IMG/VR virus record: IMGVR_UViG_3300025437_000009
Length of the DNA: 64,000 nt
Strand: one strand, 5' to 3'
Origin: a virus
Lineage: Duplodnaviria > Caudoviricetes
This document shows positions 2,405 to 30,930 of the stretch, piece after piece. Numbering within the stretch: the first letter of the stretch is position 1; each line of letters starts with the position of its first letter. The position numbers and the translations under genes were made by a program. The notes under the pieces are model-generated. The model was given only the letters and a program-made list of their open reading frames with translations. It was not told the DNA's origin and ran no database searches.

Positions 2405-2423
2405 AGTAAAAGCGATAGATAAA

Positions 2424-5986: not shown

Positions 5987-6018
5987 GTAAATAAATATAT
6001 TCACAGGAATAGAAAAAT

Positions 6019-7021: not shown

Positions 7022-7336
7022 ATGAGCGAACTCGAAAAAATTACTGACGAAATCCGTCGGGCAACTGATTATCAGATCAACAAAAAGATTCTTCGCGAGA
7101 AGATCCAAACCGATTTGCACGTTGCATATAACGGTGGCCTGTTCAAAGTAACTCCTGAACTGTTGGCATTTGTAGCTACATATAGATATACTACAATGTA
7201 TATTGAAGACACATATCATAATCCCATTGAAGTTGAACGTGACGAGTTTCGTACACTATGTGAAGAACACTATCAACTAGTAATGAATCGATGGCATCAA
7301 GAACATAATGAACTCAAACGAATCCGTAAAGTCTAG
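7022..7336 (+). CDS. Hypothetical protein
   Basis: 104 aa ORF directly downstream of the consensus promoter; overlaps the next gene. Confidence 0.7.
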   Translation: MSELEKITDEIRRATDYQINKKILREKIQTDLHVAYNGGLFKVTPELLAFVATYRYTTMYIEDTYHNPIEVERDEFRTLCEEHYQLVMNRWHQEHNELKRIRKV

Positions 7337-8120
7337 AGGTGTAGTAGTATTTGCTTTTAATACTACCATAGACTATGTTGCTATTGCAGATCAAACAAGT
7401 CGACTGATTGGCCACACATTAAATTTACCCATTACACTGATCACTGACTTAGATAGCACACCCAAGTTTGCATACGATCATATTGTTCGAATAGAAAAAC
7501 AGGGCGACACATTTAAAACAGAAGATATGTCGTTCCGCTGGAGAAATCTTGGTAGACATTTAGCCTATGATCTCAGTCCCTACGATGAAACAGTTTTACT
7601 GGATACTGATTATCTTGTATTGGATGATAGCCTATTAAAATTGTTTGCTACAGATTTTGATTATCGGTTAATGCACCACAATGCAACACCCGAAGGACCA
7701 AGTTATGAACTAATGGGTGAAACAAGCCTTCCGTTTATTTGGGCCACAGTAGTCCTTTTTAGAAAAACAGAACGTGCTAGGTTATTTTTTGATCTTGTAG
7801 GGCGAGTTCAACGGAACTACGCCTACTATCGTGCTTTGTACAATATTCGTGAAGGAAATTTCCGTAATGACTATGCATTTGCTATAGCTAACAATATCAT
7901 TAGTGGTTATTCCTTAAATGAAGACCAAGGCATTCCTTGGCGCATGTTTACACTAGAAAAGAAAATTGAACGTATAATATTAAAGGATAATTTTATACAC
8001 GTACATCACAACGAAACAGCTACAGTGGTGCCATACCAAAATATACATGTGATGGATAAGTGGTATTTACAAAGTAGTGAATTTGAACAATTAGTGGAGG
8101 CTATAGTTGAGCCAACATAA
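7308..8120 (+). CDS. GT-A-like nucleotide-diphospho-sugar transferase
   Basis: SPYDETVLLDTDYLVL (DxD motif), WATVVLFRK, FRNDYAFAIA. Confidence 0.65.
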   Translation: MNSNESVKSRGVVVFAFNTTIDYVAIADQTSRLIGHTLNLPITLITDLDSTPKFAYDHIVRIEKQGDTFKTEDMSFRWRNLGRHLAYDLSPYDETVLLDTDYLVLDDSLLKLFATDFDYRLMHHNATPEGPSYELMGETSLPFIWATVVLFRKTERARLFFDLVGRVQRNYAYYRALYNIREGNFRNDYAFAIANNIISGYSLNEDQGIPWRMFTLEKKIERIILKDNFIHVHHNETATVVPYQNIHVMDKWYLQSSEFEQLVEAIVEPT

Positions 8121-8958
8121 AGAACAACAAGGATTTGTTACCTTTGCACAAAACACAGACGCAGTGGATTATTTGGAGCTTGCTTACCTGCAGGCACTTA
8201 ACATTAAGGCAACGCAGAAGAATAACCGGTATGCGGTAATTGTTGATGCAACCACTAAGGAGAAAGTAAATGACTCTCATCGTAATACTTTTGATTATAT
8301 TATTGATCTGCCCACCGATTATAATGACACTTCCTCTGATAGAAAGTTTGCTAACGAATGGCAAGTCTTTCGTCTTACGCCTTTTAAAGAGACTATTAAA
8401 TTAGAATCAGATTTATTGTTTACAAGAAGTATTGAACATTGGTGGACTGCATTTAGATTACGGAATGTTTGTTTAAGCACAGGTGCTAAAACATTTGGCG
8501 GAATCAATGGAACTATACGCAAGTATCGGGAATTGTTTGATGCTAATCAGTTACCGGATGTCTACAACGGCCTAATGTATTTCCGCTATAGTCAAGACGC
8601 ACACAATTTTTTTGAAGCCGCACGTTATATACAGCAGTATTGGGAATATGTAAAAACTGGTCTTAAAAAATGCGTTGAAGACAAACCCAGTACAGATGTG
8701 CTATACGCATTAGCTGCACTAATGGTTGGTGAAGAAACCTGCACAATGCCTAGTATGGACTTTATAAACTTTGTACATATGAAGTCTGGATTCAATGGAT
8801 GGTCGGACACACAAAGTTGGTTAGAAACTGTTATGACAGAACGAGACGGTGATGTTATTCGAATCAATAACTTAAACCAATATGGCCCTGTACATTACTA
8901 CGATAAGAATTACTGCACTAAAGAACTAATTGAATATTATGAGTCCAGAAGAACTTAA
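8107..8958 (+). CDS. GT-A-like transferase, paralog of 7308..8120
   Basis: TPFKETIKLESDLLF aligns with the SPYDETVLLDTDYLV motif; YNGLMYFR, TDVLYALA. Confidence 0.6.
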   Translation: MSQHKEQQGFVTFAQNTDAVDYLELAYLQALNIKATQKNNRYAVIVDATTKEKVNDSHRNTFDYIIDLPTDYNDTSSDRKFANEWQVFRLTPFKETIKLESDLLFTRSIEHWWTAFRLRNVCLSTGAKTFGGINGTIRKYRELFDANQLPDVYNGLMYFRYSQDAHNFFEAARYIQQYWEYVKTGLKKCVEDKPSTDVLYALAALMVGEETCTMPSMDFINFVHMKSGFNGWSDTQSWLETVMTERDGDVIRINNLNQYGPVHYYDKNYCTKELIEYYESRRT

Positions 8959-9286
8959 AGCATATTGGGCAGAGGTAAAACCCGAAATATCAACACAACT
9001 TGAATATAGATTGCATTATAATGATGATGGTGATATTACAATGTGTAGTATGCAACAACACCCAGAATCAACTCAGTATATTGTAGTAACAAAAGAAGAA
9101 TATGATAACTATTTTCGGTATTGTGTGGTCAAAGGACAACTAGTTAAAATTGAACATAATTCAAAATATCGTGTCAGACTTAAAAAATCTACAAAGGGAT
9201 TTCCTACAGTAGCAGGACACGCAGGACTTGTAATAGAAGCAGATGAAGTATATAATAACGTAGAATACTATGAGCCAAATAATTGA
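8939..9286 (+). CDS. Hypothetical protein
   Basis: ORF overlaps both neighbours within the operon; probable start MSPEEL. Confidence 0.65.
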   Translation: MSPEELKAYWAEVKPEISTQLEYRLHYNDDGDITMCSMQQHPESTQYIVVTKEEYDNYFRYCVVKGQLVKIEHNSKYRVRLKKSTKGFPTVAGHAGLVIEADEVYNNVEYYEPNN

Positions 9287-10169
9287 CGTAGCAGATTTAG
9301 ACTGCATTTACCTAACCTATGATGAACCAAATAAAGAACAAAATTGGATCCATATACAAAATATGGTTCCCTGGGCCCGTCGTGTGGATGGTGTTAAAGG
9401 GTCAGACGCCGCCCACAAAGCCGCCGCTGATGAAAGTAGCACTGACCGTTTTATTCTTATTGACGGTGACAATATCCCAGATCCTAATTTCTTTAATCTC
9501 CAGCTGGCACTAGACGATACAAATAAAGATTGTGTATTCCGTTGGCGGGCTCGTAACGCTATTAATGGCCTAATGTATGGCAATGGCGGATTAAGTTGCT
9601 GGACTCGAGACTTCGTCTACAGTATGCGTACACACGAAGCTAGTGACGGCACCACAGAAAACGATGTAGAGTTTTGTTTTTACCCTAACTACTGGGCTAT
9701 GAGTGACTGCTATTCAACTACCTATCCTAATGCTACTCCTTTCCAGGCTTGGCGTGCTGGCTTCCGTGAAGGTGTTAAGATGTGTTTAGATCGCGGAGCA
9801 AAGCCCACGCTACAAGAGTTTGAATCACGTGTGCATGGCCGCAACTACGATCACTTGTGTATTTGGCAATCAGTTGGTGCCGATGCTGACAACGGTTTTT
9901 ATAGTATCTTGGGTGCTAGAACAGGTACTTATATGACCATGCTGACCGAGTGGGACTATCGAGTAGTACAGGACTTTTCTGTACTAGAACAAATTTGGCA
10001 AAACAACGGAGCAGAGGATCAAGACACTGATCGGTGCAGTGAGTTAGGGGATATACTGCGTCATCAGTTAGGACTACCTATTGTTGATATGGATCCGGAT
10101 GCAAGTAAGTTTTTTAAACATCATTACAAAAGTCAGTTTCGTAATCAAGGACCAATGATCCGTGAGTAA
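9270..10169 (+). CDS. GT-A-like glycosyltransferase
   Basis: RVDGVKGSDAAHKAAA...RFILIDGDN (DxD), YGNGG, AWRAGFREGVKM. Confidence 0.65.
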   Translation: MSQIIDVADLDCIYLTYDEPNKEQNWIHIQNMVPWARRVDGVKGSDAAHKAAADESSTDRFILIDGDNIPDPNFFNLQLALDDTNKDCVFRWRARNAINGLMYGNGGLSCWTRDFVYSMRTHEASDGTTENDVEFCFYPNYWAMSDCYSTTYPNATPFQAWRAGFREGVKMCLDRGAKPTLQEFESRVHGRNYDHLCIWQSVGADADNGFYSILGARTGTYMTMLTEWDYRVVQDFSVLEQIWQNNGAEDQDTDRCSELGDILRHQLGLPIVDMDPDASKFFKHHYKSQFRNQGPMIRE

Positions 10170-11547
10170 ATCAGATTTTATGGCATCAGCTGAGTGGATG
10201 AAGGAGAATCTAGGTCCTGCACTCTGTTTGGCTAAATGGAAACAAGTGAGCCTACACTTGCCCACAGGACTTAATAACTCCTGTTACCATCCACCCCTAC
10301 ATCCAATTGATGCTGACGCATTAAAAGATAATCCTGGCGCATTACATAATACTGAGCATAAGAAACAGCAACGTGTTATCATGCTTAAGAATGAAAAACC
10401 TAGTGAATGTAGTTACTGCTGGAATATAGAAGCACACGATCAATTAAGTGATCGACACTATCGATCAGGAGAACCGTGGGCTGCTGAAGACTATGAAGTA
10501 ATTAAAAATTCCACAGGAGAAGAAGATGACGTTATTCCAAGTTATGTTGAAGTTAATTTTAATCACGCCTGCAATCTCGCTTGTAGCTATTGCAGTCCAC
10601 AATTTAGTAGTTCCTGGGCACAAGAGGTTGAACGTTGGGGAGCCTATCCGACATCAAGTCCTCATAATGATCCCAGCCATTTTGTGGGTCGTAATCGTCC
10701 TATCCCTGCAAGAGAGGACAACCCCTATGTCGATGCCTTCTGGCAGTGGTGGCCAGAATTGTACCCAAAGCTCAAACACTTCCGGATGACTGGTGGTGAA
10801 CCACTAATGGATCGAAATACCTATCGGGTATTTGATTATGTCCTGGCTCTACCCAACCCCGAACTACACCTAAATGTAACCAGTAACTTTTCAGTAGATG
10901 ACTCCCTGTTTGAAAAATATTTGGGCTATGTTAAACAATTATGTAACACAAACATAGAACACTTTATGCAGTATGTTAGTTTAGACTCCGGCAAATATCA
11001 ACACGCTGAGTACATTAGACACGGACTAAACTTTCACCGTATGCAAAATAATGTACATAGATTCTTACACGAGATTCCATATCGCAATAGTCTTACATTT
11101 ATTATTACAATGAATAATCTAAGCGTGTTGGGCATACAGCAACAGTTAGAATGGATTCTTAACCTCCGCAAGTCTTATAGCACAACTTATCAACGTGTTT
11201 GGTTTGATACACCACTATTACGCCAACCTTCTTGGCAAAGTTTACAAATACTCCCAGAAGTCTATGTAGGAGTACTAGAACGTGTAGCAGACTGGATGGA
11301 ACTACATTTAGAAACACCAGACAAGCCATTTCAAGGCTTTAAAGATTACGAAGTACAACGTATGCGTCGTGACATAGATTGGATGAAAGAAGGTAGCAAA
11401 CTTGATCCAGAATATGTTAAACTACAAAGAGCAGATTTTTATCGTTTCTTTAACGAACACGATAAACGACGGAATACTGATTTTTTAACAACCTTCCCCG
11501 AAATGAAGGAATTTTGGAGCCAATGCCGATACTATGCCCAAAATTAA
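10162..11547 (+). CDS. Radical SAM protein with N-terminal auxiliary Cys cluster (Twitch/SPASM-like)
   Basis: CNLACSYC (CxxxCxxC), TGGEPL; N-terminal CLAKW..SCYH..CSYCW. Confidence 0.9.
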   Translation: MSKSDFMASAEWMKENLGPALCLAKWKQVSLHLPTGLNNSCYHPPLHPIDADALKDNPGALHNTEHKKQQRVIMLKNEKPSECSYCWNIEAHDQLSDRHYRSGEPWAAEDYEVIKNSTGEEDDVIPSYVEVNFNHACNLACSYCSPQFSSSWAQEVERWGAYPTSSPHNDPSHFVGRNRPIPAREDNPYVDAFWQWWPELYPKLKHFRMTGGEPLMDRNTYRVFDYVLALPNPELHLNVTSNFSVDDSLFEKYLGYVKQLCNTNIEHFMQYVSLDSGKYQHAEYIRHGLNFHRMQNNVHRFLHEIPYRNSLTFIITMNNLSVLGIQQQLEWILNLRKSYSTTYQRVWFDTPLLRQPSWQSLQILPEVYVGVLERVADWMELHLETPDKPFQGFKDYEVQRMRRDIDWMKEGSKLDPEYVKLQRADFYRFFNEHDKRRNTDFLTTFPEMKEFWSQCRYYAQN

Positions 11548-11817
11548 TTTAAAAGAAAAAATAGTATTTGGGAAAAAATAGTTAAAAATATAAACACATT
11601 AGCTGATCGATATGGCGGGTATTCCTGTATACAAATAAACACCGTACTACAACGTGACAATATCAATCATTTATTAGAACTAGGGCAATGGATAGAAAGC
11701 ACAGGAATCACACGCTGGACATTGTCCGAACTTGGCCCAACCCTTGGATTTAATCCAATTGGCCAATATCATTATCAAAATTGTGAAAAAAGTAATAGTT
11801 CCGGAAGAACTATTTAA
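11548..11817 (+). pseudogene. Remnant of a radical SAM gene (C-terminal barrel fragment, no start codon)
   Basis: Open frame right after the 11547 stop reads FKRKNSIWEKIVKNINTLADRYGGYSCIQINTVLQRDNINHLLELGQW, resembling the W..V.KN...I.INTV....N segment of the flanking enzymes; no CxxxCxxC. Confidence 0.6.
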
Positions 11818-11868
11818 ATTATCGATAGTATCAACAAATATAAAAAGTGTAAACTTACTTAAAAAAAT

Positions 11869-13218
11869 ATGCCAAGACTCAACAACGAAACAGATTTAGA
11901 ATATAAACGTAGAGTAATCGATATTAAATCAGACTCATTTTGTGGTGCCAAATGGTACAATGCTACCATATGGTTGGGATCAGGACAGACTACAAGTTGC
12001 CATCACCCACTGCCACATAAAGTTGCAGTAGAAGATATACTAAATAATCCTAAAGCACTACATAATACACTAACAAAGAAAAAAGAACGTGCTCAAATGC
12101 AACAGGGCGAACGCCCAGGCGGTTGTGAGTATTGTTGGAAAATAGAGGACATTGGCCGTGACAACATCAGTGATAGAGTATATAAAACAGTTATCTATTC
12201 AGACGAAGACCTGGATCAAGCATATAACCTTCCAGCAGATGCAGACGTGGATTTACAAACTTTGGAAATTGCATTCGATCGTACCTGTAATTTTGCTTGC
12301 TCTTACTGTAACCCTGCTTTCAGTTCAACTTGGGTTAATGATTTGGATCGCAACGGCCCTTACACAGGGTTGGTTAGTGATGGCCGAAATCATTTTACTC
12401 ACGGTCATGATAGCAGTCAACTTTATCGCTTTAATGAAAGCAATCCTTACGTGGATGCCTTCTTTAAATGGTGGGAATCAGACCTCCATAGAACACTAAA
12501 AGAACTGCGACTAACGGGTGGCGAGCCGCTTATGTCAGGCGACACGTGGAAGTTATTAAACTGGTTTAAAAACAATGACACTGATATGAAGTTTGCTATG
12601 AACAGCAATCTTGGTGCCAAGGATGAGCTAATTGATCGATTAATTGATGCAACGCATTCGATCAAACACTTTCATTTGTATACTAGTAATGAATCAATCA
12701 GTCAACAAAGCGAATATATTCGTGATGGACTAGTTTGGGATAACTGGGCCAACAATGTAGAAAAAATATTGACTAACGGTAGACTTGAAGGATTTCACAT
12801 GATGTGTACCGTTAACGCATTATGCTTAGACAGTTTGGTTAGTTTTTTAGAATGTGTAATGAATTGGAAACGTGAGTATGGAAAAGACTTTCCTACGTTT
12901 ACACTAAATATTTTACGCTTCCCAAGTTTTCAATCACCCCTAGTATTACCGGATTCAATTAGGACTTACTATAGAGAACAATTACAGGAATGGTTTGATC
13001 AAAATGCCTACGATGATTGTATGCATCAAATGGAACGTAATCAGTTACGTAGATTAATTGATTACCTTGATGTAGTTAAAACACCCCACGTAGGTGCAGC
13101 AGAGCAATCAGTCCTACAACAAGATTTTAAAAAGTTTTACACTCAGTATGACCAACGTCGCGGTAAAAACTTTGCCCAAACGTTCCCAAATTTAGAAGAA
13201 TGGTACAATAGTATATGA
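11869..13218 (+). CDS. Radical SAM protein with N-terminal auxiliary Cys cluster
   Basis: CNFACSYC, TGGEPL; FCGAKW..SCHH..CEYCW; close paralog of 10162..11547. Confidence 0.9.
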   Translation: MPRLNNETDLEYKRRVIDIKSDSFCGAKWYNATIWLGSGQTTSCHHPLPHKVAVEDILNNPKALHNTLTKKKERAQMQQGERPGGCEYCWKIEDIGRDNISDRVYKTVIYSDEDLDQAYNLPADADVDLQTLEIAFDRTCNFACSYCNPAFSSTWVNDLDRNGPYTGLVSDGRNHFTHGHDSSQLYRFNESNPYVDAFFKWWESDLHRTLKELRLTGGEPLMSGDTWKLLNWFKNNDTDMKFAMNSNLGAKDELIDRLIDATHSIKHFHLYTSNESISQQSEYIRDGLVWDNWANNVEKILTNGRLEGFHMMCTVNALCLDSLVSFLECVMNWKREYGKDFPTFTLNILRFPSFQSPLVLPDSIRTYYREQLQEWFDQNAYDDCMHQMERNQLRRLIDYLDVVKTPHVGAAEQSVLQQDFKKFYTQYDQRRGKNFAQTFPNLEEWYNSI

Positions 13219-14552
13219 CAGAACGTCAAAAAGAGTTTTATAAAAAGGGCTATGACTATATGTCAAAGAAGCCTATCTATATCAGTGAAGATAAACTAAC
13301 AGAAGAACAGACACGCAGATTAACTAGCGATAAACACTTTTGTATACTACCTTGGGTGCATACACATGCTTTCCCGGATGGTCGTACTTATCCCTGTTGT
13401 CTAGCAGATTACTGGCATCCCGTCGGAGACCTGCGCAAAAATACCATGGAAGAAATTTGGAACCAAGATGGTTACAAGACTATGCGACGTAACATGCTAG
13501 AGGATAAACCTTGCAAGGAATGTACCAAATGCTATGAACAAGAAGCCAGCGGCTTTTTCAGTATGCGTAACGAAGCAAATAGAAACTTAGGACACTACAT
13601 AAATGACGTTGATCAAACCCTCGACGATGGCACGCATCCTGAATTCAAAATTAGGTATTGGGATATCCGTTTTAGCAATCTCTGCAATTTCAGCTGTCGT
13701 ACCTGCGGTCCTATTTTCAGTAGCAACTGGTACAACGATCATGTCAAGCTATATAATCGCAAGCCAGATGTTCTTGGTCGCGACATGCTACGAGTGGAAT
13801 ACGCAGCAGGAGACGAAGAATCGATAATGAAACAGATGGAGCCTCATATTCCATATATGGAGCAGGTATATTTTGCTGGTGGTGAGCCACTTATTATGAA
13901 GGAACATTATTTCTTATTAGATAAATTGTTGGAACGCGATAAAACTAATACTCGACTAATCTACAATACAAACTTTAGTGAATTACATTTTAAAGACAAA
14001 CATGTATTTGACTATTGGAAAAAATTTGAAACAGTAAATGTAGGAGCAAGTCTAGATGCATCATATGCACGAGGAGAACTAATACGTAAAGGTACTGATT
14101 GGAATCAAACAGTTGAAAATCGTCGGCGTATGAAAGAAGAAGTTCCGCATGTGGATTTTTATATTAGCTCTACTATTAGTGTTATGAATGTGTTGCATGT
14201 ACTAGATTTTCATAAAGAGTGGGTTGAATTAGGGTTAATAGATCCAAAAGATTTTAATGTTAATATTTTACAAGGACCTAAATGGTATCGAATTGACATA
14301 CTACCTGAATGGTTTAAACAAGAAGTAGTCATACCAGCTTATAGAAAACATATTGAGTGGTTAGATCCCCTAGACAAACTACGTCGTGCTACTGTTGGAT
14401 TTGAAAGTGTTATTAACTTTATGTCTAATCCAGGAAATAAAAATGACTGGGACAAGTTCATTAAAGAAACTTATGTCTTGGATACCTTACGTAAAGAAAA
14501 ATTTTGGGACACGTTTCCAGAATTAATACCAGCAAAAAATGCTACAGTATAA
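13215..14552 (+). CDS. Radical SAM protein with N-terminal auxiliary Cys cluster
   Basis: CNFSCRTC, AGGEPL; FCILPW..YPCC..CTKC. Confidence 0.9.
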   Translation: MTERQKEFYKKGYDYMSKKPIYISEDKLTEEQTRRLTSDKHFCILPWVHTHAFPDGRTYPCCLADYWHPVGDLRKNTMEEIWNQDGYKTMRRNMLEDKPCKECTKCYEQEASGFFSMRNEANRNLGHYINDVDQTLDDGTHPEFKIRYWDIRFSNLCNFSCRTCGPIFSSNWYNDHVKLYNRKPDVLGRDMLRVEYAAGDEESIMKQMEPHIPYMEQVYFAGGEPLIMKEHYFLLDKLLERDKTNTRLIYNTNFSELHFKDKHVFDYWKKFETVNVGASLDASYARGELIRKGTDWNQTVENRRRMKEEVPHVDFYISSTISVMNVLHVLDFHKEWVELGLIDPKDFNVNILQGPKWYRIDILPEWFKQEVVIPAYRKHIEWLDPLDKLRRATVGFESVINFMSNPGNKNDWDKFIKETYVLDTLRKEKFWDTFPELIPAKNATV

Positions 14553-22896: not shown

Positions 22897-23243
22897 CAGA
22901 GGTTGAACTAATTCAAGAAAAACAAAAACATATTTGGGCAAATGAAATGGCTTCATTATACTCACAAATTATTGTGAACGGAATTTATAACTCAGAAGAC
23001 TTTGGGTACCAGGAAAGAGAAGAGATAGCTGCCTACGTAAGTTTTAAAAATAAATGCGTGTATTGTTTTAAAGGCCACAAAACTGATAAAACGCTTAGTA
23101 TTGAATTAAGAAAGCTGATAGACGATTTATATAGTGGTAAAAAACAGGTTGATATAAATGATAACGATAAACTAATCGAACAAATTATTTATATTATTGG
23201 ATTTTTAAATTTTGTTAATTTTGTATTAAAGGCATATCGATAA
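22893..23243 (+). CDS. Hypothetical protein (AT-rich)
   Basis: Overlapping start/stop junctions on both sides. Confidence 0.55.
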   Translation: MTEVELIQEKQKHIWANEMASLYSQIIVNGIYNSEDFGYQEREEIAAYVSFKNKCVYCFKGHKTDKTLSIELRKLIDDLYSGKKQVDINDNDKLIEQIIYIIGFLNFVNFVLKAYR

Positions 23244-24082: not shown

Positions 24083-24279
24083 TGGATACTGCTAAACGTA
24101 GTTTGGTAAAAACAATCAGTTGGCGGGTAGTTGGTAGTACAGCTACGTTTGGCATTAGTTATTTGATATCTGAAAATTTTGCTGTTGCTGGGACTATAGC
24201 TATCGTGCAGTTGATTGCAAACACCGTACTATACTTTGTACATGAGAGGCTGTGGAATCGTGTTAATTGGGGTCGATAG
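24082..24279 (+). CDS. DUF2061-like small membrane protein
   Basis: RSLVKTISWRVVGS...YFVHERLWNRVNWG. Confidence 0.8.
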   Translation: MDTAKRSLVKTISWRVVGSTATFGISYLISENFAVAGTIAIVQLIANTVLYFVHERLWNRVNWGR

Positions 24280-25435
24280 CAATTCGTTGACCTAAACGAT
24301 TAACGGTATACGGCGCCGGGGTAGTAAAACTATCAGCCATGGACTTTAATTCTGCTTTAAGATGATCCCATTCTTTCTTGATAAAATTAGGATCTGTAAA
24401 CAAGTTATAGTTATGATCTAGTGTAGGTTGCATGTCTATCAGCATTAATTTTTGTTGTTCTGGTGACATATTAGATAGATCGCGTAGTATGTCTACTACC
24501 CGGGACATTCTTAGAATAGGATCTTCTATGGCGTCGTAGCTTTCGTCCCAATAATCACCAAATGTACGGAATCCGTAACTGCGTAGATACTCTAAGTTAT
24601 GAACACAACCCAGCAGTAGGAAGGGCATACGCAGGACAATTGGTTTAAATATTTTTTCTGTTAGGTGAGTTTTATCTTGCCAATAACAAGTTTCAGTAAC
24701 AACAAATACAAAACTTTCCATCAATTGATCCATAGGACTTAATAACATACTTTGATTGGGTATATCTTGATCAGCAAAATCTATTCGAAGTTCTGGAAGT
24801 TGGTTAATGTTAGTGATAGCTTCTCTTACAAGTAAAGGATCAACTCCTTGATTAACAATACTTAATTCTAAATTAGAATCAAATGATCCGCCATCGGGAC
24901 AAATTTTGCTAAAGCTAACGTAGCCCTGATCTAATAGATTATGTTTATACAATTCATTAACGAAAAGACTTCTATATACACGTTCGTTACTGGTTAACCT
25001 ATTAAAAGTAATATATGTTTTTGCTAGTGTTCTATCCCGTGGACTGATTAATCCTGGTAAGTATTCGTGTCCTCGATACCAATCTGCTGCTGCAAATATG
25101 TGAAAAAAGTAATCGAGGTGAGCAAATCTAAATTGATCACAAATGCGTTCTTTTTCAGTTGACAACTGTTCAGTACTAACTAAAACCCACGGTCCGTAGG
25201 TATTTGAAGTAATGTATTCAAATAATGATTTGTTGTAACCAAAGTTAAGAGGTTCTTGATCATAAAAAATAAACATTGGTCCTCGAGCTTCTGGTGGATC
25301 CGTGTCATTTCTTAATGTTTCTAAGTTTTCTGGTTGAGTTGACCCAAAAGGGTATAGGTATACTACCCTTGGATCTGCTATAATAGTCTTTAAGTATTGG
25401 TATATATTTTCGTAATGATTGGATAGGTTATACAT
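24263..25435 (-). CDS. Putative glycosyltransferase (TEKxxKP family), inverted within the + operon
   Basis: VVTETC..HLTEKIFKPI...PFLLLG..L.YLRSYGF.TF..WDESYD; paralog of 29863..30930. Confidence 0.6.
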   Translation of the reverse strand: MYNLSNHYENIYQYLKTIIADPRVVYLYPFGSTQPENLETLRNDTDPPEARGPMFIFYDQEPLNFGYNKSLFEYITSNTYGPWVLVSTEQLSTEKERICDQFRFAHLDYFFHIFAAADWYRGHEYLPGLISPRDRTLAKTYITFNRLTSNERVYRSLFVNELYKHNLLDQGYVSFSKICPDGGSFDSNLELSIVNQGVDPLLVREAITNINQLPELRIDFADQDIPNQSMLLSPMDQLMESFVFVVTETCYWQDKTHLTEKIFKPIVLRMPFLLLGCVHNLEYLRSYGFRTFGDYWDESYDAIEDPILRMSRVVDILRDLSNMSPEQQKLMLIDMQPTLDHNYNLFTDPNFIKKEWDHLKAELKSMADSFTTPAPYTVNRLGQRIAIDPN

Positions 25436-27854
25436 GTTTGATGTTTTTTATCAGGGACCAAAACCGGGATTATTTGCTTTCGAGCAACCTGCAGAGTCTC
25501 TTGACGAAGCTGCAAGCAAGAGTAGAACTAGTCACTACTGGTATATTTATGGGGGCAATGACTACACGGGATTTGATTTTGACTATACACCTGTCCCTTG
25601 GGAAACTAGTCACATACATGTCTGGCCTAGTCAATGGCAACAAGATGGCGGGGTATATCTAGCCAATCGACGTACTGTGGCTAACCGTGAATGGCATTTC
25701 CGTACAGAACAACGTGTTGTGAGAATACCAGATGACACTAATTGGACTATTCCTGCATATTTGACCGGTATCGACACCAGTTGGCATCCAGATCCTCACG
25801 AACCTAGCTACGTATATCATTTTCCTAGCCAGTGGCAAAGTGCTAGTGGAGCATACTATACTGTTCCTGGCGCTACTGAAGTTAAGTTGTCAGATCAACA
25901 GATATCTACTGCTATTCCCAATCGTCGGTACTGGCACATACCCGATGAAATCAATCAAGAAGGTGTAGATTTTAGCTGGCATCCCAACGTATTAGATCCT
26001 GCGTACATATACCACTTTGGCACAGACTGGCAGGCCAGTGTTGGCCTAACTTATACAGTCACAGGTGCTACGGAAATTAAGTTTGCTGGGCCCATACCTG
26101 GCGGAGAAAATGCCTTGGAAGTGCAGGACATATTCTTTATAGACAAGGGCAATGATACTGCTACTACACGCTACGAACTGCTACGTGGCAAGTATGGTGA
26201 TCGTGTGACCAAATTACGATATGCCAATAGCCTAATAGACACCATTGCTCGTTGTGCTAATAGAACCACTACAAATAAATTTTGGGTTATCAGCAGTGAG
26301 TACGATTATACTACATTTGATTTTGCGTGGCATGCAGAACCTTGGCAAAGTTTCATGACACACGTATTCCCTAGCCAGCATCAAAAGTGGTCTGACACAT
26401 TCTTAATTAACAAGTGGGAATTTCAACGTCACACAGAGTGGGCCAGCACCTTAGAAGAGTTTCCTAATTTGAACTTTGTAACAGATCAAACAGTAAGCAA
26501 GCCCGATAACTTGCATAACATTTATTATGTCGATCACGGTAATCCTACCAGTCGACATCAGTATGAACTTCTACGTTTATCACACCCTGACATAGTATTC
26601 ACACGTTTTGTAGACAATTACTTAGATACATTTAAACGTATTATGTCGACTGCTACTACAGAATATGTTTGGATCATTAATAGTGTATGTGATTACACCC
26701 AGTTTGACTTTACGTGGCAACCAGAACCTTGGCAACGGGAAATGATCCACGTATTCCCTAGTGACAATCAAGAACGTGGCGATACCTTTTACATACACGT
26801 AGAATCATTTAAAAAACAAATGATTGAATTAGAGTTGTTGGATTGGTTTAATGTAATTAACTATTGTGAAGATCAACGTGTGTACCGTTTTGATATGCCC
26901 GTACATCAATACTACACAGATGACCTGGTATCCGAAATTAAGAACTACAAGTTTGACACTCCATATGTATTGTTTACTAACCAAAAAGATCTACAGATGT
27001 TGGCAACACCCTGCTTATGGACAAAGAAAGATCGAGTTGTAGAACGTTTATCGCCTGCGGGTGCTACCGCGATAGTACCTCGTGATATCAAGGCTGATTT
27101 GAAGACACAAATCTATGATTATCCTTATATTCATGCTGGAAAACCGTGGGTAAACGACTACTTAGGAGGTGAGTTTAGCCTTGACATAGTCTATATCAGT
27201 AACGGAGAACCCGATGAAGAACGTTGGTATGAACATACTTGTGACGTAACCAATTCACGAGTAAAATGGGTTAGGGGAGTAAATGGTCGTACTGCCGCTT
27301 ATCAAGAAGCTGCACGTCAGAGTCGCACACCGTGGTTCTTTGCTGTGTTTGCTAAGTTACAGGTCAATCCAGAATTTCCATGGCATACTTGGATGCCAGA
27401 TTATTTTCAAGAACCTAAACACTATATCTTTAATAGCCATAATCCTGTAAATGGATTAGAGTATGGACATCAGGGTGTTATTGCTTATAACAAGAGATTA
27501 GTATTAGAAAATACAGCACCGGGCATCGACTTTACACTTTCGCAAGCACATGAAGCAGTTCCTTTATTATCAGGTATAGCACATTTCAATCAAAGTGAGT
27601 GGATGACTTGGCGTACTGCTTTCCGTGAAGTAGTTAAATTAAAGCACTTTATGGCTACACAACCAACACTAGAAACCAGTCATAGACTAGCAACATGGAC
27701 AACGGTTGCTGAAGGCGACTTTGCTGAATGGAGTATTCGTGGAGCAGAAGATGCTATTCAGTACTACAATGAAGTGGGTGGGGATTACAATCAGCTCATG
27801 TTGAGCTTTGAGTGGGCCTGGTTACAGGAACGTTTTAACGCAGGTAATTTATAA
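25434..27854 (+). CDS. Large multi-repeat glycosyltransferase-like protein
   Basis: Five DF.W.P.PW....H.FPS..Q-type repeats; C-terminal domain homologous to 9270..10169 (VRGVNGRTAAYQEAA, WRTAFREVVKL). Start may be 25419 or 25434. Confidence 0.7.
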   Translation: MFDVFYQGPKPGLFAFEQPAESLDEAASKSRTSHYWYIYGGNDYTGFDFDYTPVPWETSHIHVWPSQWQQDGGVYLANRRTVANREWHFRTEQRVVRIPDDTNWTIPAYLTGIDTSWHPDPHEPSYVYHFPSQWQSASGAYYTVPGATEVKLSDQQISTAIPNRRYWHIPDEINQEGVDFSWHPNVLDPAYIYHFGTDWQASVGLTYTVTGATEIKFAGPIPGGENALEVQDIFFIDKGNDTATTRYELLRGKYGDRVTKLRYANSLIDTIARCANRTTTNKFWVISSEYDYTTFDFAWHAEPWQSFMTHVFPSQHQKWSDTFLINKWEFQRHTEWASTLEEFPNLNFVTDQTVSKPDNLHNIYYVDHGNPTSRHQYELLRLSHPDIVFTRFVDNYLDTFKRIMSTATTEYVWIINSVCDYTQFDFTWQPEPWQREMIHVFPSDNQERGDTFYIHVESFKKQMIELELLDWFNVINYCEDQRVYRFDMPVHQYYTDDLVSEIKNYKFDTPYVLFTNQKDLQMLATPCLWTKKDRVVERLSPAGATAIVPRDIKADLKTQIYDYPYIHAGKPWVNDYLGGEFSLDIVYISNGEPDEERWYEHTCDVTNSRVKWVRGVNGRTAAYQEAARQSRTPWFFAVFAKLQVNPEFPWHTWMPDYFQEPKHYIFNSHNPVNGLEYGHQGVIAYNKRLVLENTAPGIDFTLSQAHEAVPLLSGIAHFNQSEWMTWRTAFREVVKLKHFMATQPTLETSHRLATWTTVAEGDFAEWSIRGAEDAIQYYNEVGGDYNQLMLSFEWAWLQERFNAGNL

Positions 27855-28941
27855 CAGATTCTGCAACGATTTCTACTTCAGTGTCAGTCAGTTCGGGGTA
27901 GATGGGCAAGCTCAAACACTCTCTACTAAATGCAGTAGATTCTCTAAATAGATCACGAGCATAATCAATATAGTTGTAGCCAACACTTAATTCAAACAGG
28001 GGTTTATCGTAATTGCAACGAGTTTCAATTCCGTGATTGCGCATAAAATCTTTGAGTGTGTGTCTATTAGCAGTTCTAATAACAAACTTTGACCAAGCTG
28101 AATCAACACCAAGTCCGGGTCCTACAATATCAACATATCCATCCAGCTGTTCGATATAGTATTCAGCAATTTCCTGTCTACGTGCTTGCCAGGAATCAAA
28201 GTATTCAAGTTTGACCAGCATGGCAGCACAATCAGCTTCCGACATCTTGCTGTTAGTTCCGTGAGCCTGGTGTCCCATCTTTTTGCCATTGTCACGCAGG
28301 TCCAGTAGATCTTCATATATGCTGTAACTATCTGTCAAGACCATACCACCTGAACCATAGTTGTTTAGATTCTTAGTGGGATCAAAACTCAACACACTGA
28401 TGTGACCTAGACTACCTGAAGGTATTCCTTTGTAGCTAGCACCAAATGATTGTGCAGCATCTTCAATTACTAAAATATCATCGTTGAAAAATTCTGTTTG
28501 TAGTCTAAAACGATCCCAATCTATGACATGTCCAAATAGGTTAGCGTACATGATACAATCTACACCAGCACCGGTCAGCGCGGTATCCATTGACTCCAAA
28601 TCTAATAGAGCACAATGATCAGTATCGCAGAACACAGGGGTATGCCCAGCGTACAGCACACTATTAATAGTGGCAGCAAAACTTAGGGTGGGAATTAATA
28701 CTCGACTTTCGGCTGGGATACAGGCCTGTTGTGCAAAAATTAAACCTTGCGTACAACTGCCCACTGCCACAGCCCATTGGCGTCCACAACGTTGAGCCAC
28801 AGCCTCTTCAAAGGCACGAGTACACGGGCCGTCTAGAACTTGTCCAGTCTGATATACTTCATCCATGGCATCCATGATTTCTTCACGTAGAGTCTTGTAT
28901 TGACGATCAACGCCAAAGAACGGAATCTTTAAGCCACTCAT
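27835..28941 (-). CDS. DegT/DnrJ/EryC1/StrS PLP-dependent NDP-sugar aminotransferase
   Basis: IEDAAQSFG, SFDPTKNL..YGSGG (PLP Lys), CLSLPIYP; probable start MSGLKIPF. Confidence 0.92.
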   Translation of the reverse strand: MSGLKIPFFGVDRQYKTLREEIMDAMDEVYQTGQVLDGPCTRAFEEAVAQRCGRQWAVAVGSCTQGLIFAQQACIPAESRVLIPTLSFAATINSVLYAGHTPVFCDTDHCALLDLESMDTALTGAGVDCIMYANLFGHVIDWDRFRLQTEFFNDDILVIEDAAQSFGASYKGIPSGSLGHISVLSFDPTKNLNNYGSGGMVLTDSYSIYEDLLDLRDNGKKMGHQAHGTNSKMSEADCAAMLVKLEYFDSWQARRQEIAEYYIEQLDGYVDIVGPGLGVDSAWSKFVIRTANRHTLKDFMRNHGIETRCNYDKPLFELSVGYNYIDYARDLFRESTAFSRECLSLPIYPELTDTEVEIVAESVINYLR

Positions 28942-29866
28942 AGTACAGTTGGAAACCTTCTTCAATATCAATTTTTCCGCGATAGCCAAAGTCCATACCA
29001 GCACGAATTGTGCTTAGTGTACCTCGACTAGGAAAACGTGGATTGGCCTCAGCTATTCGAATACGACCATTACCAGCAATTTTAACGGCCAGTTCTGCGG
29101 CTTCCAATAGTGTTCGACCGCTACTGCGTGTGATATTATAAGTACGCCTACTACTGTTAAAACTATTAGTAGCACGTACTATACCTTTTACACAATCATC
29201 TACGTAGGTAAAGTCTAATACTTCATCGGGACCGCATACTACTAATTCTTGATTGCGCATAGCCGCTACCAGGAAACGACTGACCACACGATCTAATACA
29301 TCACGTGGCCCATATACTGCTGAAGGGCGTAGAACAACATGATCTATTCCTGCACGATCACAATGATCACGAGTCAGTTGTTCACCTGCTAACTTAAGAA
29401 TACCGTAAATGCCTTTTGGGGTACACTTCATATCCTCGTAGCCGTAAAGGTCAAAGTCACCATAGACCATACTAGAGCTAACATAAACAAATCTACGTAC
29501 TTTCCAGTATTCACTGGCACGCAATAAATTAATAAGCCCACCAGTTAAGACTTCAGAACCTTCTATGGGATTTAGATCAACAGCCTTGGCGCGAGGATAA
29601 GCAGCACAATGTATAACAATGTCAGGACGGCATTCAGCAAATACTTCTGTCAGTGCTGGATAATCTCTAATGTCAATTTGGTGTATTCGTTTGTTGTTTA
29701 ATCTAGCCAGACGTTCGTTGTGTAGCTGTGTAACCTCTTTTGCAGGTATAGTTCCGCTATAGTCGGTGAGACTATCTATCACACAAACATCATGTCCTTG
29801 ACGTTCAAATTTGGCCACAATGCCGTGACCAATAAATCCAAGTCCACCAGTAACTAATATTTTCAT
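28907..29866 (-). CDS. NAD-dependent NDP-sugar epimerase/dehydratase
   Basis: TGGLGFIG, SSSMVYG, YGILK (YxxxK), DFTYVDD. Confidence 0.92.
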   Translation of the reverse strand: MKILVTGGLGFIGHGIVAKFERQGHDVCVIDSLTDYSGTIPAKEVTQLHNERLARLNNKRIHQIDIRDYPALTEVFAECRPDIVIHCAAYPRAKAVDLNPIEGSEVLTGGLINLLRASEYWKVRRFVYVSSSMVYGDFDLYGYEDMKCTPKGIYGILKLAGEQLTRDHCDRAGIDHVVLRPSAVYGPRDVLDRVVSRFLVAAMRNQELVVCGPDEVLDFTYVDDCVKGIVRATNSFNSSRRTYNITRSSGRTLLEAAELAVKIAGNGRIRIAEANPRFPSRGTLSTIRAGMDFGYRGKIDIEEGFQLYYEWLKDSVLWR

Positions 29867-30930
29867 CTGTTTGCTATAATCTCTTCAATTTGAATTTTTA
29901 CTTGTGCTATTTCTTTATTATACAGTAAAGGTAGGGACTTTGTAAAGTGATTATGGTTGTGTTCTAGCACAGGAAGCATTTCCTGATAAACAGAATTTAT
30001 CTTTTCTGGGGACCAAGTACTCATGTCTAATATAACACGAAGCATGGCTTCAAATCGTTGACGTCCGACTAGTTTATCGTAACTTTGATCTATCCACTGT
30101 TCAAAAGTTTGAAATCCCATGTCTCTCAACGCATCAAAACTATAAGGATTGCTGTGTAATAAAAAAGGTTGATAAAACAAAATTGGTTTAAACGTTTTCT
30201 CAGTAAAAAATGGAAACTTGTCAAGACTATGTGTTTCTGTAACAATAGAACAAAAACAATCTTCGTAGTATTTGCTGTTACCTATGCCCCAATCGTTATA
30301 ATCAAAATTGTCTACTAATCCAGTGGTCAGTGGAAGTAATTTTTTAGATTCTTTGAAGTCTATTTTATCTGCATACCAAACATTGCCATATTCGCCGGCT
30401 GAAAAATCCTGATCTATTTCGTCCAGTGACTGATACGGTGTACGTTCATAATCTCCAATGTAACTAAAATAGGCCTTATTTCTTAGATTAAAGTTTTCAA
30501 AAAAATAAAATAGACCCTGTCGAAACCATGTTGCACGATTGTTTAAAGATAAAAAATGTAAGAATTTGTTACTATTTTTTATAGCATCAAAATTGACATT
30601 TTTGTATACCATATTATGAGTATAATAGGAGTTAGCGTATTTTAGATTTATAAAACTTGCAGAATTTTTAAATTTATCTTTTAATACAGATGAAATTTCA
30701 TGCGATAATAAAAAAATATAATAATTGCTATAGTCACGAGACAGCATATTTTCAATTTGGTCGTCTCTCAGCAGTTCCCCAATTTGGGAATATAAAATAA
30801 TTTTATTTTTTAATTGAGAAAAATCTCTGTTTGATTCGTTTATTTCCCCGTGATATGTAGTTGATACTACTACGTTATCATTTGCTAAATTTACCAATTC
30901 TTGATAGGAGTTGGTTTTAAGGAAATTCAT
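29863..30930 (-). CDS. Putative glycosyltransferase (TEKxxKP family), AT-rich
   Basis: FLSLNNR, IVTETH..FFTEKTFKPI, GF.TF..WIDQSYD, HN.NHF. Confidence 0.6.
   Translation of the reverse strand: MNFLKTNSYQELVNLANDNVVVSTTYHGEINESNRDFSQLKNKIILYSQIGELLRDDQIENMLSRDYSNYYIFLLSHEISSVLKDKFKNSASFINLKYANSYYTHNMVYKNVNFDAIKNSNKFLHFLSLNNRATWFRQGLFYFFENFNLRNKAYFSYIGDYERTPYQSLDEIDQDFSAGEYGNVWYADKIDFKESKKLLPLTTGLVDNFDYNDWGIGNSKYYEDCFCSIVTETHSLDKFPFFTEKTFKPILFYQPFLLHSNPYSFDALRDMGFQTFEQWIDQSYDKLVGRQRFEAMLRVILDMSTWSPEKINSVYQEMLPVLEHNHNHFTKSLPLLYNKEIAQVKIQIEEIIANR

Follow-up and report, generated by a model that had tools for sequence, protein, structure and literature searches.

A radical SAM-rich gene island in a large T4-like phage that may build and decorate an unusual sugar or glycan

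A tightly packed island between tail fibre genes and thyA

The 64,000-nucleotide stretch of DNA analyzed here (the window) derives from a large freshwater T4-like phage. Between its tail fibre genes and thyA/frd lies an island of about 24 kb that holds seven radical SAM (rSAM) genes, five of them of the N-terminal-twitch type (NF033640), together with six glycosyltransferase (GT)-like genes, a two-domain O-carbamoyltransferase, a DegT aminotransferase with an SDR, a kinase/nucleotidyltransferase fusion and two GDS-motif proteins. The features at its borders are as follows.

4121..5986, plus strand: tail fibre protein with a C-terminal Peptidase_S74 chaperone domain (Pfam PF13884, E 8e-9)
6019..6957, plus strand: 312-aa Ser/Thr/Gly-rich, Cys-free structural-type protein, by sequence
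6969..6997, plus strand: predicted sigma70-type promoter, TTGACA-N17-TATAAT (12/12 consensus matches)
7022..7336, plus strand: p104, conserved small helical protein (23-66% identity in 14 relatives)
30927..31838, minus strand: thymidylate synthase (TIGR03284, 342 bits; NF002497 above cut-off)

The Peptidase_S74 domain found in 4121-5986 agrees with a preliminary description that placed the island directly after tail fibre genes. This gene also adjoins the island in relatives; it is the upstream border and lies outside the pathway. The 312-aa protein, the final late-type gene ahead of the island and kept upstream of it in more than 12 relatives, is a possible glycan acceptor. At the far end thyA, which adjoins a DHFR gene, is the downstream border and is likewise outside the pathway.

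The putative promoter ends 25 nt upstream of the first island gene. No other 12/12 sigma70 site occurs within 20 kb. In 9 of 15 relatives the p104 orthologue likewise has such a site upstream of it, matching at 10/12 positions or more. Judged by its consensus match, the site would be a host-type promoter for the tightly packed plus-strand operon at 7022-24279, which is followed by a gene block reaching thyA. All gene junctions in the island overlap or abut, save for a single 321-nt gap. Only soluble enzymes are encoded: membrane-bound glycan machinery (initiating phosphoglycosyltransferase, flippase, polymerase, exporter/transporter) is missing, no sugar nucleotidyltransferase was recognized, and there is no sulfotransferase.

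Is this a coherent unit? More than 15 contigs of uncultured phages keep the gene order from tail fibre to thyA, at 40-86% amino acid identity, and the order of about 20 genes persists at identities as low as ~40%. The block from 24279 to thyA has an order common to four relatives, and the genes starting at 14539, 16733, 22893 and 29863 come and go. A gene set lacking synteny in relatives had been named as grounds for abandoning the proposal of a common system; the island is a coherent set with conserved gene order, so that objection fails.

One glycosyltransferase family has a predicted GT-A fold

7308..8120, plus strand: GT8-like GT-A candidate a, DTD at residues 99-101
8107..8958, plus strand: GT8-like GT-A candidate b, paralog of 7308-8120
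9270..10169, plus strand: predicted GT2-like GT-A glycosyltransferase, invariant DGD (AF2 pLDDT 84, Foldseek)
24263..25435, minus strand: GT10-like candidate a, FxTEKxxKP motif (family alignment A4)
25419..27854, plus strand: 811-aa protein with a C-terminal GT2-like paralog of 9270-10169 (BLASTP E 2e-14)
29863..30930, minus strand: GT10-like candidate b, sharing 34% identity with 24263-25435 in the C-terminal 129 residues

Foldseek matched the model of 9270..10169 to RmlT, WrtF, beta4GalT and PBCV-1 A64R (probability 0.95-1.0), to AFDB GT2 clusters, and to the S-glycosyltransferases SunS and ThuS. D65 and D67 are invariant in this gene, the most conserved of the island apart from the rSAMs, and its product is predicted to adopt a GT-A fold. 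The related 811-aa protein (48-66% identity in relatives) has FAK in place of DGD, and its GT2-like C-terminus is probably non-catalytic.

A profile of the 7308/8107 family (A1) found glycogenin in the PDB (E 0.006-0.02), the match spanning the DxD region, and the Atlas language-model neighbours of 8107..8958 were Glyco_transf_8 and Nucleotid_trans clusters at 0.95-0.98; these matches weakly suggest that the pair is GT8-like. The FxTEKxxKP motif hints that the 24263/29863 paralogs could be GT10-like; the former, conserved in relatives, has Atlas GT10 neighbours at 0.78 only, and the latter is variable among relatives. Searches of Pfam, NCBIfam and PHROGs gave no above-threshold support for the GT8-like, GT10-like or SGNH assignments. 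The earlier listing of at least six GT-like genes of three kinds holds up unevenly, with a predicted fold in one family, weak similarity in the second and a motif in the third. Absence of GT folds had also been raised as an objection to a glycan pathway, but such a fold is predicted for one or more of the GT families.

Seven radical SAM genes include five distinct N-twitch orthogroups

10162..11547, plus strand: rS1, N-twitch radical SAM (NF033640 E 5e-89)
11548..11868, plus strand: 321-nt gap with an 89-codon stop-to-stop frame
11869..13218, plus strand: rS2, N-twitch radical SAM (NF033640 E 2e-89)
13215..14552, plus strand: rS3, N-twitch radical SAM (NF033640 E 6e-119)
14539..15525, plus strand: 328-aa radical SAM, C-terminal Cys cluster (Pfam Radical_SAM E 6e-6, below cut-off)
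15497..16732, plus strand: rS4, N-twitch radical SAM (NF033640 E 3e-101)
16733..17965, plus strand: 410-aa radical SAM, N-terminal Cys cluster (Pfam Radical_SAM 50 bits; motifs)
17962..19254, plus strand: rS5, N-twitch radical SAM (NF033640 E 2e-89)

The earlier count of seven radical SAM enzymes was borne out: CxxxCxxC is present in all seven, and the genes starting at 10162, 11869, 13215, 15497 and 17962 score above the NF033640 cut-off. These five fall into five stable orthogroups, each with a single member in any contig; support is 0.92-1.0 for four of the orthogroups. The orthogroups of rS1, which has four N-terminal Cys besides CxxxCxxC, and rS5 are phage-only (support 0.92 and 1.0). rS2, whose orthogroup has support of 0.99, is 52% identical to a protein of Ralstonia phage RsoM2USA, and the rS3 and rS4 clades include 13 and 6 Bacteroidia proteins (support 0.49 and 0.99, respectively). 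The remaining two are other SPASM/twitch-type rSAMs, and both are variable: few relatives carry a counterpart of 14539..15525 (CxxxCxxC at residue 18), and only three have matches to 16733..17965, at 26-27% identity. The 321-nt gap had no match in Rfam; a search of a small database gave its frame weak similarity (E 0.001) to residues 264-353 of rS4, and it probably holds a decayed radical SAM gene fragment.

In profile searches, the nearest solved relatives of these rSAMs were viperin, MoaA, BlsE and BtrN (E 1e-5 to 0.1), whose substrates are nucleotides or sugar-like small molecules and which were closer than SkfB, the sole peptide maturase matched. They share with the phage enzymes the CxxxCxxC core and one auxiliary four-Cys cluster. 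However, the similarity is weak, and the auxiliary domain is N-terminal in the phage rSAMs and C-terminal in the solved enzymes. Our literature search found no NF033640 member with a characterized product, acceptor or activity.

Predicted sugar, carbamoyl and other tailoring functions

19238..20323, plus strand: p361, conserved protein (37-77% identity in 12 relatives)
20298..20846, plus strand: SGNH-like protein a, GDS at residue 8
20818..20919, plus strand: conserved 33-aa micro-ORF, C-terminus RKRDPFIYK
20916..21455, plus strand: SGNH-like protein b, GDS at residue 6 (DUF6071 E 7e-6, just under cut-off)
21415..22896, plus strand: NodU/CmcH-type O-carbamoyltransferase (PF02543 and PF16861 above cut-off, E 2e-37 and 5e-46)
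22893..23243, plus strand: 116-aa protein, hydrophobic C-terminus by hydropathy
23243..24082, plus strand: APS-kinase-like P-loop kinase fused to an HxGH nucleotidyltransferase (PF01583, 29.5 bits)
24082..24279, plus strand: 65-aa DUF2061 predicted membrane protein (PF09834 E 9e-22)
27835..29004, minus strand: DegT-family sugar aminotransferase, PseC/DesI-like (PF01041 E 7.5e-72)
28907..29866, minus strand: NAD-dependent SDR, sugar epimerase/4,6-dehydratase type (PF01370 E 1.7e-43)
8930..9286, plus strand: p118, conserved small protein (31-56% identity in 9 relatives)

These matches uphold the carbamoyltransferase and the pairing of an NDP-sugar epimerase-type SDR with a DegT enzyme. The carbamoyltransferase has a partial NodU match (E 6e-39) and is 57-75% identical in most relatives that have one (32-33% in two). 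The NCBIfam matches of DegT fall under equivalog cut-offs, and its position is kept in four relatives; the top NCBIfam match of the SDR is dTDP-glucose 4,6-dehydratase (E 3e-29, below cut-off). In the proposed APS-kinase/nucleotidyltransferase fusion, split into two genes in some relatives, the APS_kinase P-loop domain is above the Pfam cut-off and the HxGH domain is weakly cytidylyltransferase/NMNAT-like (CTP_transf_like E 0.01; archaeal NMNAT E 3e-5). The proposed SGNH proteins do carry the GDS motif; protein a had no family match and protein b the sub-threshold DUF6071 match only.

Across 20 related phage contigs the micro-ORF shows 52-94% identity, and its RsoM2USA counterpart 41%; Pfam gave no match. 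Bacterial ORFs of ~50-62 aa end in APYIYSLF/APFIYSIF, and one of them abuts a carbamoyltransferase gene; they have a transmembrane segment that the phage micropeptide lacks. The 33-aa product resembles an SxtK-type partner for the carbamoyltransferase. Among the other proteins, p104 had no Pfam or PHROG match and no conserved Cys/Ser/Thr core. In p361 numerous His, Glu and Arg residues are invariant, and the predicted fold is a cyclophilin-like barrel into which a helical bundle is inserted (AF2 pLDDT 80; middling fold matches). The 116-aa protein is not conserved, having no relatives in the compared loci.

Counterparts in phages, bacteria and known clusters

The N-twitch rSAM set and the GT2-like family are almost absent from cultured phages: RsoM2USA, which retains the rSAM-SGNH-micropeptide-carbamoyltransferase core, was the only match besides distant rSAM matches in two Vibrio phages. 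Carbamoyltransferase homologues occur in 136 phage records, mostly cyanophages, but are only 28-36% identical to that of the island. T4-like cyanophages and pelagiphages, likewise aquatic, carry LPS or cell-surface clusters and "Nol-like carbamoyltransferase" genes.

In Bacteroidia, the one class in which bacterial context was sampled, and there by association only, NF033640 genes form tandem arrays of up to about 8. Their neighbours encode GDSL, PhyH, UbiA-like, carbamoyltransferase, GT4, GT2, GT32-like, SDR, UDP-glucose dehydrogenase, AsnB, methyltransferase and ABC-2 transporter proteins. The island shares with these loci the rSAM family, GDSL/SGNH neighbours, an SDR, a carbamoyltransferase with a small ORF (APxIY in bacteria) and, in one locus, a DegT-like gene. 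Only the bacterial loci have PhyH dioxygenases, UbiA-like, GT4, UDP-glucose dehydrogenase and ABC-2 transporter genes, whereas by BLASTP they lack the phage GT8-like, GT2-like, GT10-like and p361 families. Because the bacterial rSAM, GDSL and carbamoyltransferase homologues sit in polysaccharide-type loci, the glycan-related role proposed earlier gains support.

The saxitoxin cluster contains a similar tailoring set, comprising the carbamoyltransferase SxtI, small ORFs SxtJ/K, GDSL lipase SxtL and APS kinase SxtO (PMC2885083). The island also has a carbamoyltransferase with an adjoining tiny ORF, a GDSL protein and an APS-kinase-like protein. The scaffold-forming sxt genes are all missing from the island; hence the likeness is confined to tailoring modules.

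Virus-encoded virion glycosylation is known from chlorovirus PBCV-1 (A64R and partners), mimivirus fibril clusters and mycobacteriophage capsids and tail tubes (Freeman et al. 2023, as cited in PMC12619734). Like the island, these systems have soluble virus-encoded GT-A enzymes and an amino-sugar supply (SDR plus DegT-type aminotransferase) and dispense with lipid-carrier machinery; unlike the island, they are not known to employ radical SAM, carbamoyltransferase or kinase/nucleotidyltransferase enzymes. The claim that no characterized pathway has this combination accords with our literature search, which found no paper on it.

Proposed pathway and alternatives

We lean, somewhat, toward a cytoplasmic pathway whose product is an unusual, chemically decorated sugar or glycan. 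The genes would probably be expressed early. The SDR and DegT enzymes could turn a host NDP-hexose into an NDP-amino-deoxy sugar, and the five non-redundant N-twitch rSAMs would each take hydrogen from a sugar or NDP-sugar carbon, with epimerization, oxidation, deoxygenation or C-C bond formation as possible outcomes. GT-A and possibly also GT-B-like enzymes would join the sugars on an acceptor. The carbamoyltransferase and its 33-aa partner peptide may then O-carbamoylate a hydroxyl, the two SGNH proteins may attach or strip ester groups, and the kinase/nucleotidyltransferase may activate another small substituent. As to the acceptor, we tentatively suggest a host envelope polysaccharide intermediate at the cytoplasmic face; a virion protein, such as the adjoining Ser/Thr-rich fibre proteins, is a slightly weaker candidate, and a free small molecule is a doubtful one.

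Might the product instead be a diffusible small molecule (aminoglycoside-like, nucleoside-like or a pseudo-oligosaccharide) that targets the host or competitors, rather than a decoration on a polymer or glycoprotein? Twitch rSAMs (BtrN), DegT enzymes, TobZ/NodU-type carbamoyltransferases (TobZ) and kinases are aminoglycoside tailoring families, and we count this in its favour, along with the soluble enzymes, the absence of carrier-lipid and export genes, the small-molecule enzymes nearest the rSAM profile and the recurrence of the saxitoxin tailoring set. However, we recognized no scaffold-forming enzyme in the island (cyclitol synthase, PKS/NRPS or amidinotransferase), the number of GT-like genes, six, fits a chain better than a single unit, and the ABC-2, GT4, GT2 and UDP-glucose dehydrogenase genes beside the bacterial counterparts are typical of polysaccharides. 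We regard such a product as unlikely. It is less likely still that the rSAMs act in a RiPP-like manner on some protein or peptide, for instance a tail fibre, p104, p118 or the micropeptide, with the GTs then glycosylating it as in glycocins. The majority of characterized SPASM/twitch rSAM enzymes are peptide maturases, the island rSAMs have weak NCBIfam matches to such enzymes, SunS and ThuS appear among the GT-A matches, fibre genes abut the island, and the very conserved 33-aa ORF has a C-terminal Tyr. Yet p104 and p118 look like folded proteins without a conserved Cys/Ser/Thr core, the micropeptide tracks the carbamoyltransferase, a related bacterial small ORF abuts a gene for one, neither an RRE domain nor a peptidase was detected in the island, and the rSAM profile lies nearer the small-molecule enzymes than SkfB.

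Phage GTs and carbamoyltransferases reportedly act on 5-hydroxymethyl bases, and the early-type promoter and the neighbouring nucleotide-metabolism genes thyA and frd would suit an island that hypermodifies phage DNA, placing glycans and carbamoyl groups on hydroxymethyl-pyrimidines as in T4 glucosylation or TET-linked systems. But the ThyA here is a true thymidylate synthase with a DHFR partner, and a 97%-complete island-bearing relative has one ThyA-family gene only and gave no match in a TET/JBP search, run without a positive control; DNA glycosylation at these bases is therefore improbable. With the bacterial homologues lying in polysaccharide-type loci, we give this reading little credence. 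Least of all do we expect a mere accretion of unrelated auxiliary genes, collected in a hypervariable region and lacking a common product. Tail-fibre-adjacent regions are often variable, as four of the island genes are, but the long-range gene order, overlapping start and stop codons, one-per-genome rSAM orthogroups and co-occurrence of the same families in bacteria all oppose it.

We conclude that the island is a real, widespread and uncharacterized system that is best grouped with virus-encoded glycan machinery.

Gene order of the island and its relatives

The window is DNA of a large T4-like phage (GC content, ~0.40) of a type that recurs in freshwater lake metagenomes, and a search of sequencing runs with it returned matches only among freshwater DNA runs. 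Between its tail-fibre genes and thyA/frd lies the island (7022-30930), which a preliminary description had singled out by its gene families. The island was confirmed here, with support that varies among the families, above all the glycosyltransferase-like ones.

Layout of the island and its flanks (window coordinates), with the gene order kept among relatives
992-6957: tail-fibre-type genes, including a Gly-rich protein, a weak collar-domain protein, a Peptidase_S74 fibre and the 312-aa Ser/Thr/Gly-rich protein p312
7022-24279, plus strand: run of twenty genes, overlapping or abutting
24263-25435, minus strand: GT10-like gene a
25419-27854, plus strand: gene for an 811-aa protein
27835-30930, minus strand: genes that continue into thyA (a genuine thymidylate synthase gene) and the DHFR gene
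Kept order, 5' half: fibre (S74), p312, p104, GT8a, GT8b, p118, GT2-like, (GT10-like)
Kept order, 3' half: rS1, rS2, rS3, rS4, rS5, p361, SGNH, SGNH, carbamoyltransferase, kinase/nucleotidyltransferase, GT10-like (minus strand)
(p104, p118 and p361, proteins named by residue count; GT, glycosyltransferase; rS1-rS5, N-terminal-twitch radical SAM genes)

A scan of IMG/VR with one radical SAM (rSAM) protein as query gave 26 loci. The preliminary description had proposed a synteny survey in relatives; the common gene order was found again in >15 separate contigs, with 40-86% identity at the amino-acid level. The island is one unit. In four relatives the wider flanks are also conserved, with the 811-aa protein, DegT, SDR, ThyA, DHFR and two further genes in the same positions. 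The members that vary are the 328-aa and 410-aa rSAMs, a 116-aa protein and the second GT10-like gene. When the island was compared by megablast with 50,697 phage records there were zero matches, and a PHROGs search of ten unknown island proteins was empty.

The tight packing of the plus-strand run has a single exception, a 321-nt gap (11548-11868). It contains an 89-codon frame, open from stop to stop, that weakly resembles the middle part of rS4 and is probably the remnant of an eighth radical SAM gene. Because of this resemblance, we rejected the gap as an RNA or precursor-peptide locus. An Rfam scan of window 6-32 kb found zero RNA families.

Five fixed radical SAM paralogs

The seven radical SAM enzymes counted in the preliminary description all carry CxxxCxxC (7/7). 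Five of them, rS1-rS5 (starts 10162, 11869, 13215, 15497 and 17962), score 299-398 bits (E 1e-89 to 6e-119) against NF033640 ("twitch domain-containing radical SAM protein"), for which the curated cut-off is 170 bits over the full model. The 328-aa and 410-aa proteins fall below it, at 22 and 44 bits. Invariant across the five paralogs are C43, C61, C103 and C106, together with C157, C161 and C164, and GGEP is present. Since the first four cysteines lie ahead of the SAM-cluster motif, the auxiliary-cluster domain is N-terminal.

Pairwise identity among rS1-rS5 is just 21-29%. Five orthogroups emerged from a tree of 138 N-twitch proteins, four of them with support of 0.92-1.0, and each orthogroup has one member per contig. 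Hence, rS1-rS5 are old and non-redundant. With one rSAM alone as query, >7,500 metagenomic relatives are reached at E ≤1e-10. The nearest solved relatives of the rSAM profile are viperin, MoaA, BlsE and BtrN, which all act on nucleotides or sugar-like molecules; SkfB is the sole peptide maturase among the solved matches. We found no paper in the literature describing any NF033640 member. Two IMG/VR relatives of 221 kb (G404) and 338 kb (G405) have 13 and 8 N-twitch family matches, respectively, spread genome-wide, 12 and 8 of which are above the family cut-off.

Glycosyltransferase-like genes

Three paralogous families of glycosyltransferase-like genes are present in the island. The GT2-like protein (9270-10169) was aligned with 15 orthologues and its structure then predicted (pLDDT, 84). 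In Foldseek, the model matched GT-A glycosyltransferases with a probability of 0.95-1.0, but with TM-scores of just 0.3-0.4; the matches were RmlT, WrtF, a beta-1,4-galactosyltransferase, chlorovirus A64R and cellulose synthase. The model is also similar to GT2 clusters of the AlphaFold database (AFDB). A DGD motif is invariant in the family alignment. The predicted structure thereby combines a Rossmann-like GT-A fold with a DxD motif, as would be expected of a GT-A enzyme. The protein gave zero sequence-family matches in Pfam and PHROGs, and a profile search of its family against the PDB gave no match. The C terminus of the 811-aa protein is a GT2-like paralog with FAK in place of DGD.

For the GT8-like pair (7308-8120 and 8107-8958), a profile search against the PDB returned glycogenin (E 0.006-0.02) over 100 residues of the DxD region, a position occupied by DTD in one paralog and by ESD in the other. 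Language-model search neighbours are of the GT8/Nucleotid_trans type. Pfam gave chance matches only on the 31-member family, and single-sequence PDB searches with the two proteins gave no match. The GT10-like pair (24263-25435 and 29863-30930) shares an FxTEKxxKP motif and has a language-model GT10 feature score of only 0.78. Here too, Pfam on the 18-member family gave chance matches only and the family profile found no match in the PDB; a profile search found 1833 homologues, with a Pfam domain in 0 of the 120 listed. The GT10 label is unproven for both genes. Of the at least six genes of three kinds originally claimed, the GT2-like kind gains a predicted GT-A fold, and the GT8 and GT10 kinds stand without a Pfam match.

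Tailoring enzymes

As first described, the island encodes an O-carbamoyltransferase (21415-22896), whose Kae1-like N domain (PF02543, 130 bits) and YrdC-like C domain (PF16861, 157 bits) are both above Pfam cut-offs. It misses the NodU equivalog cut-off (134 of 1000 bits) and is therefore a member of the NodU/CmcH family, not NodU itself. DegT (27835-29004) scores 243 bits over 357 of 360 Pfam positions, above cut-off, and reaches zero equivalog cut-offs in NCBIfam. The neighbouring SDR scores 149 bits in Pfam. For this SDR, first described as an NDP-sugar epimerase, the best NCBIfam match, below cut-off, is dTDP-glucose 4,6-dehydratase. These family scores suggest that the pair supplies an amino-deoxy sugar by a dehydratase/aminotransferase route. 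As listed, the DegT and SDR frames overlap by 98 nt (28907-29004, minus strand); DegT probably starts at a downstream codon, because its Pfam match begins at residue 39.

The reported APS-kinase/nucleotidyltransferase fusion (23243-24082) was upheld in its APS-kinase-type P-loop, where the Pfam domain is above cut-off and covers the P-loop half only, and in an HxGH domain that is weakly cytidylyltransferase/NMNAT-like. It did not reach the level of a CysC equivalog (25 of 139 bits, TIGR00455). Pfam recognized no sulfotransferase or ATP sulfurylase among the island genes. Two SGNH-like proteins (20298-20846 and 20916-21455) have GDS motifs at residues 8 and 6; one scores 26.3 bits against DUF6071 (cut-off, 27), and the other has no family match. 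Translationally coupled to the kinase fusion gene upstream is a 65-aa DUF2061 protein (24082-24279, plus strand), the island's only clear predicted membrane protein.

The p361 protein (19238-20323, plus strand) is 37-77% conserved, with invariant H115, E119, H151, E152 and E154. In the predicted structure these residues lie in helices, including those of an inserted bundle, and could form a metal site. The predicted fold is loosely cyclophilin-like, with only middling cyclophilin-like and helical-bundle matches. Neither Foldseek with the model nor a family profile search found a match in the PDB. The "protein kinase" label on one AFDB neighbour is unsupported.

A micropeptide with an apparent link to the carbamoyltransferase

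We found an unannotated 33-aa ORF, MQWLKNLYNRIVLEIRYRKKLKELRKRDPFIYK (20818-20919, plus strand), that shares 52-94% identity with its counterparts in 20 related phage contigs; in some relatives it is better conserved than the neighbouring enzymes. At the equivalent position, the Ralstonia jumbo phage RsoM2USA has an ORF ending in DPFIYK (41% identity, a weak match). Two Bacteroidia loci have ORFs of ~50-62 aa with a similar basic N terminus, a transmembrane segment and an APYIYSLF or APFIYSIF end; in one of them (L066) the small ORF directly adjoins the carbamoyltransferase gene. The 33-aa ORF appears to be linked to the carbamoyltransferase. This arrangement agrees with the saxitoxin cluster, where the carbamoyltransferase gene sxtI is flanked by the short uncharacterised ORFs sxtJ and sxtK, and which also holds a GDSL protein and an APS kinase (PMC2885083). 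The likeness is confined to tailoring genes: the saxitoxin scaffold genes are all absent from the island.

Relatives in cultured phages and Bacteroidia

Among cultured phages, close homologues occur only in RsoM2USA (identities: rS2, 52%; carbamoyltransferase, 46%; GT2-like protein, 40%); two Vibrio phages have distant rSAMs. Of the 401 Bacteroidia genomes sampled, 27 have NF033640 genes, often as tandem runs of 4-8. Their neighbours include GDSL proteins, PhyH dioxygenases and UbiA-like proteins; carbamoyltransferases 32-37% identical to the phage enzyme; GT4, GT2 and GT32-like transferases; and SDR, UDP-glucose dehydrogenase, asparagine synthase, methyltransferase and ABC-2 transporter genes. 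Judged by gene content, these loci are of polysaccharide type. In the tree, the bacterial genes fall in the rS3 and rS4 clades.

Four chromosomal arrays (L062, L063, L064 and L059, in genomes G065, G016, G240 and G131) have 5-8 N-twitch rSAM genes interleaved with GDSL genes and, in places, a B12-binding rSAM, asparagine synthase, methyltransferase and GT32-like transferases. They are an uncharacterised bacterial system of their own. Another Bacteroidia genome (G337) encodes an 842-aa protein with a Peptidase_S74 (endosialidase chaperone) domain and a T9SS sorting tail (L065:13076-15604), ~1.3 kb downstream of an N-twitch rSAM pair with one ORF between. This neighbourhood echoes the adjacency of S74 fibre and rSAM genes in the phage.

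Promoter and timing

A perfect TTGACA-N17-TATAAT lies 25 nt upstream of the first island gene, the sole 12/12 site in 20 kb, and in 9 of 15 relatives the orthologous first gene also follows such a site, with 10/12 matches or more. A promoter of consensus host type points to early expression, by the host polymerase in its unmodified form. The minus-strand arm of the island is co-directional with thyA and frd, both expressed early in T4. In the 64 kb there is a single copy of the T4 late-promoter motif TATAAATA, where ~7 would be expected by chance. We dropped it as a marker of gene timing for this reason; late promoters of this lineage must deviate from the T4 consensus.

Product and acceptor

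The best-supported reading is a pathway that builds a glycan and decorates it by unusual radical chemistry. We consider it, on balance, probable; its product, its acceptor and every reaction are what we infer. Pfam identified no initiating phosphoglycosyltransferase, flippase, polymerase or ABC transporter/exporter in any island ORF, and the only membrane features are the DUF2061 protein and one hydrophobic tail. Any glycan must therefore be assembled in the cytoplasm. From there it could be attached to a host lipid-linked intermediate or to protein, or stay a soluble molecule, and the pathway may use host machinery. Among possible acceptors we place an envelope polysaccharide intermediate of the host first, though at less than even odds, and a virion protein slightly lower. 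That the product is a free small molecule seems unlikely.

Could the radical enzymes modify a protein or peptide instead? We think this quite improbable: neither an RRE nor a peptidase family was detected in the island (Pfam, NCBIfam), p104 (7022-7336) and p118 (8930-9286) look folded and, without a Cys/Ser/Thr core, are unlike RiPP precursors, and the 33-aa ORF seems tied to the carbamoyltransferase. Glycosylation of hydroxymethyl-pyrimidines in phage DNA is very unlikely. The window ThyA passes thymidylate synthase equivalog cut-offs, and in a relative of 338 kb (97% complete) it is the only member of the ThyA family; a TET search of that relative, run with no positive control, gave no Tet_JBP hit.

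Returning to the glycan pathway, we tentatively propose that NF033640 represents undescribed radical sugar chemistry, with the five fixed paralogs acting serially on one glycan or NDP-sugar. The toolkit would be common to aquatic T4-like and jumbo phages and Bacteroidia, and would yield a hypermodified, carbamoylated glycan of a new class with which phages would give the host surface, or their own fibres, a new coat early in infection.

Significance

Virus-encoded glycan machinery is known, but no example centred on radical SAM enzymes is known to us. The island is a new form of such machinery, and the chemistry of the underlying enzyme families may be new as well. The preliminary description had pointed to no characterised pathway with this combination, and we found no paper describing the module in the literature. 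What travels together here is a set of five rSAM orthogroups, a GT-A family, a cyclophilin-like protein and a carbamoyltransferase linked to a micropeptide. Since the rSAM family occurs both in phages and in Bacteroidia arrays of up to ~eight genes, one solved reaction would annotate thousands of genes. RsoM2USA, with its reduced version of the island, is a cultured entry point. Solving one rSAM reaction could reveal new sugar chemistry and also a new phage route to altered receptor landscapes or shielded virions.
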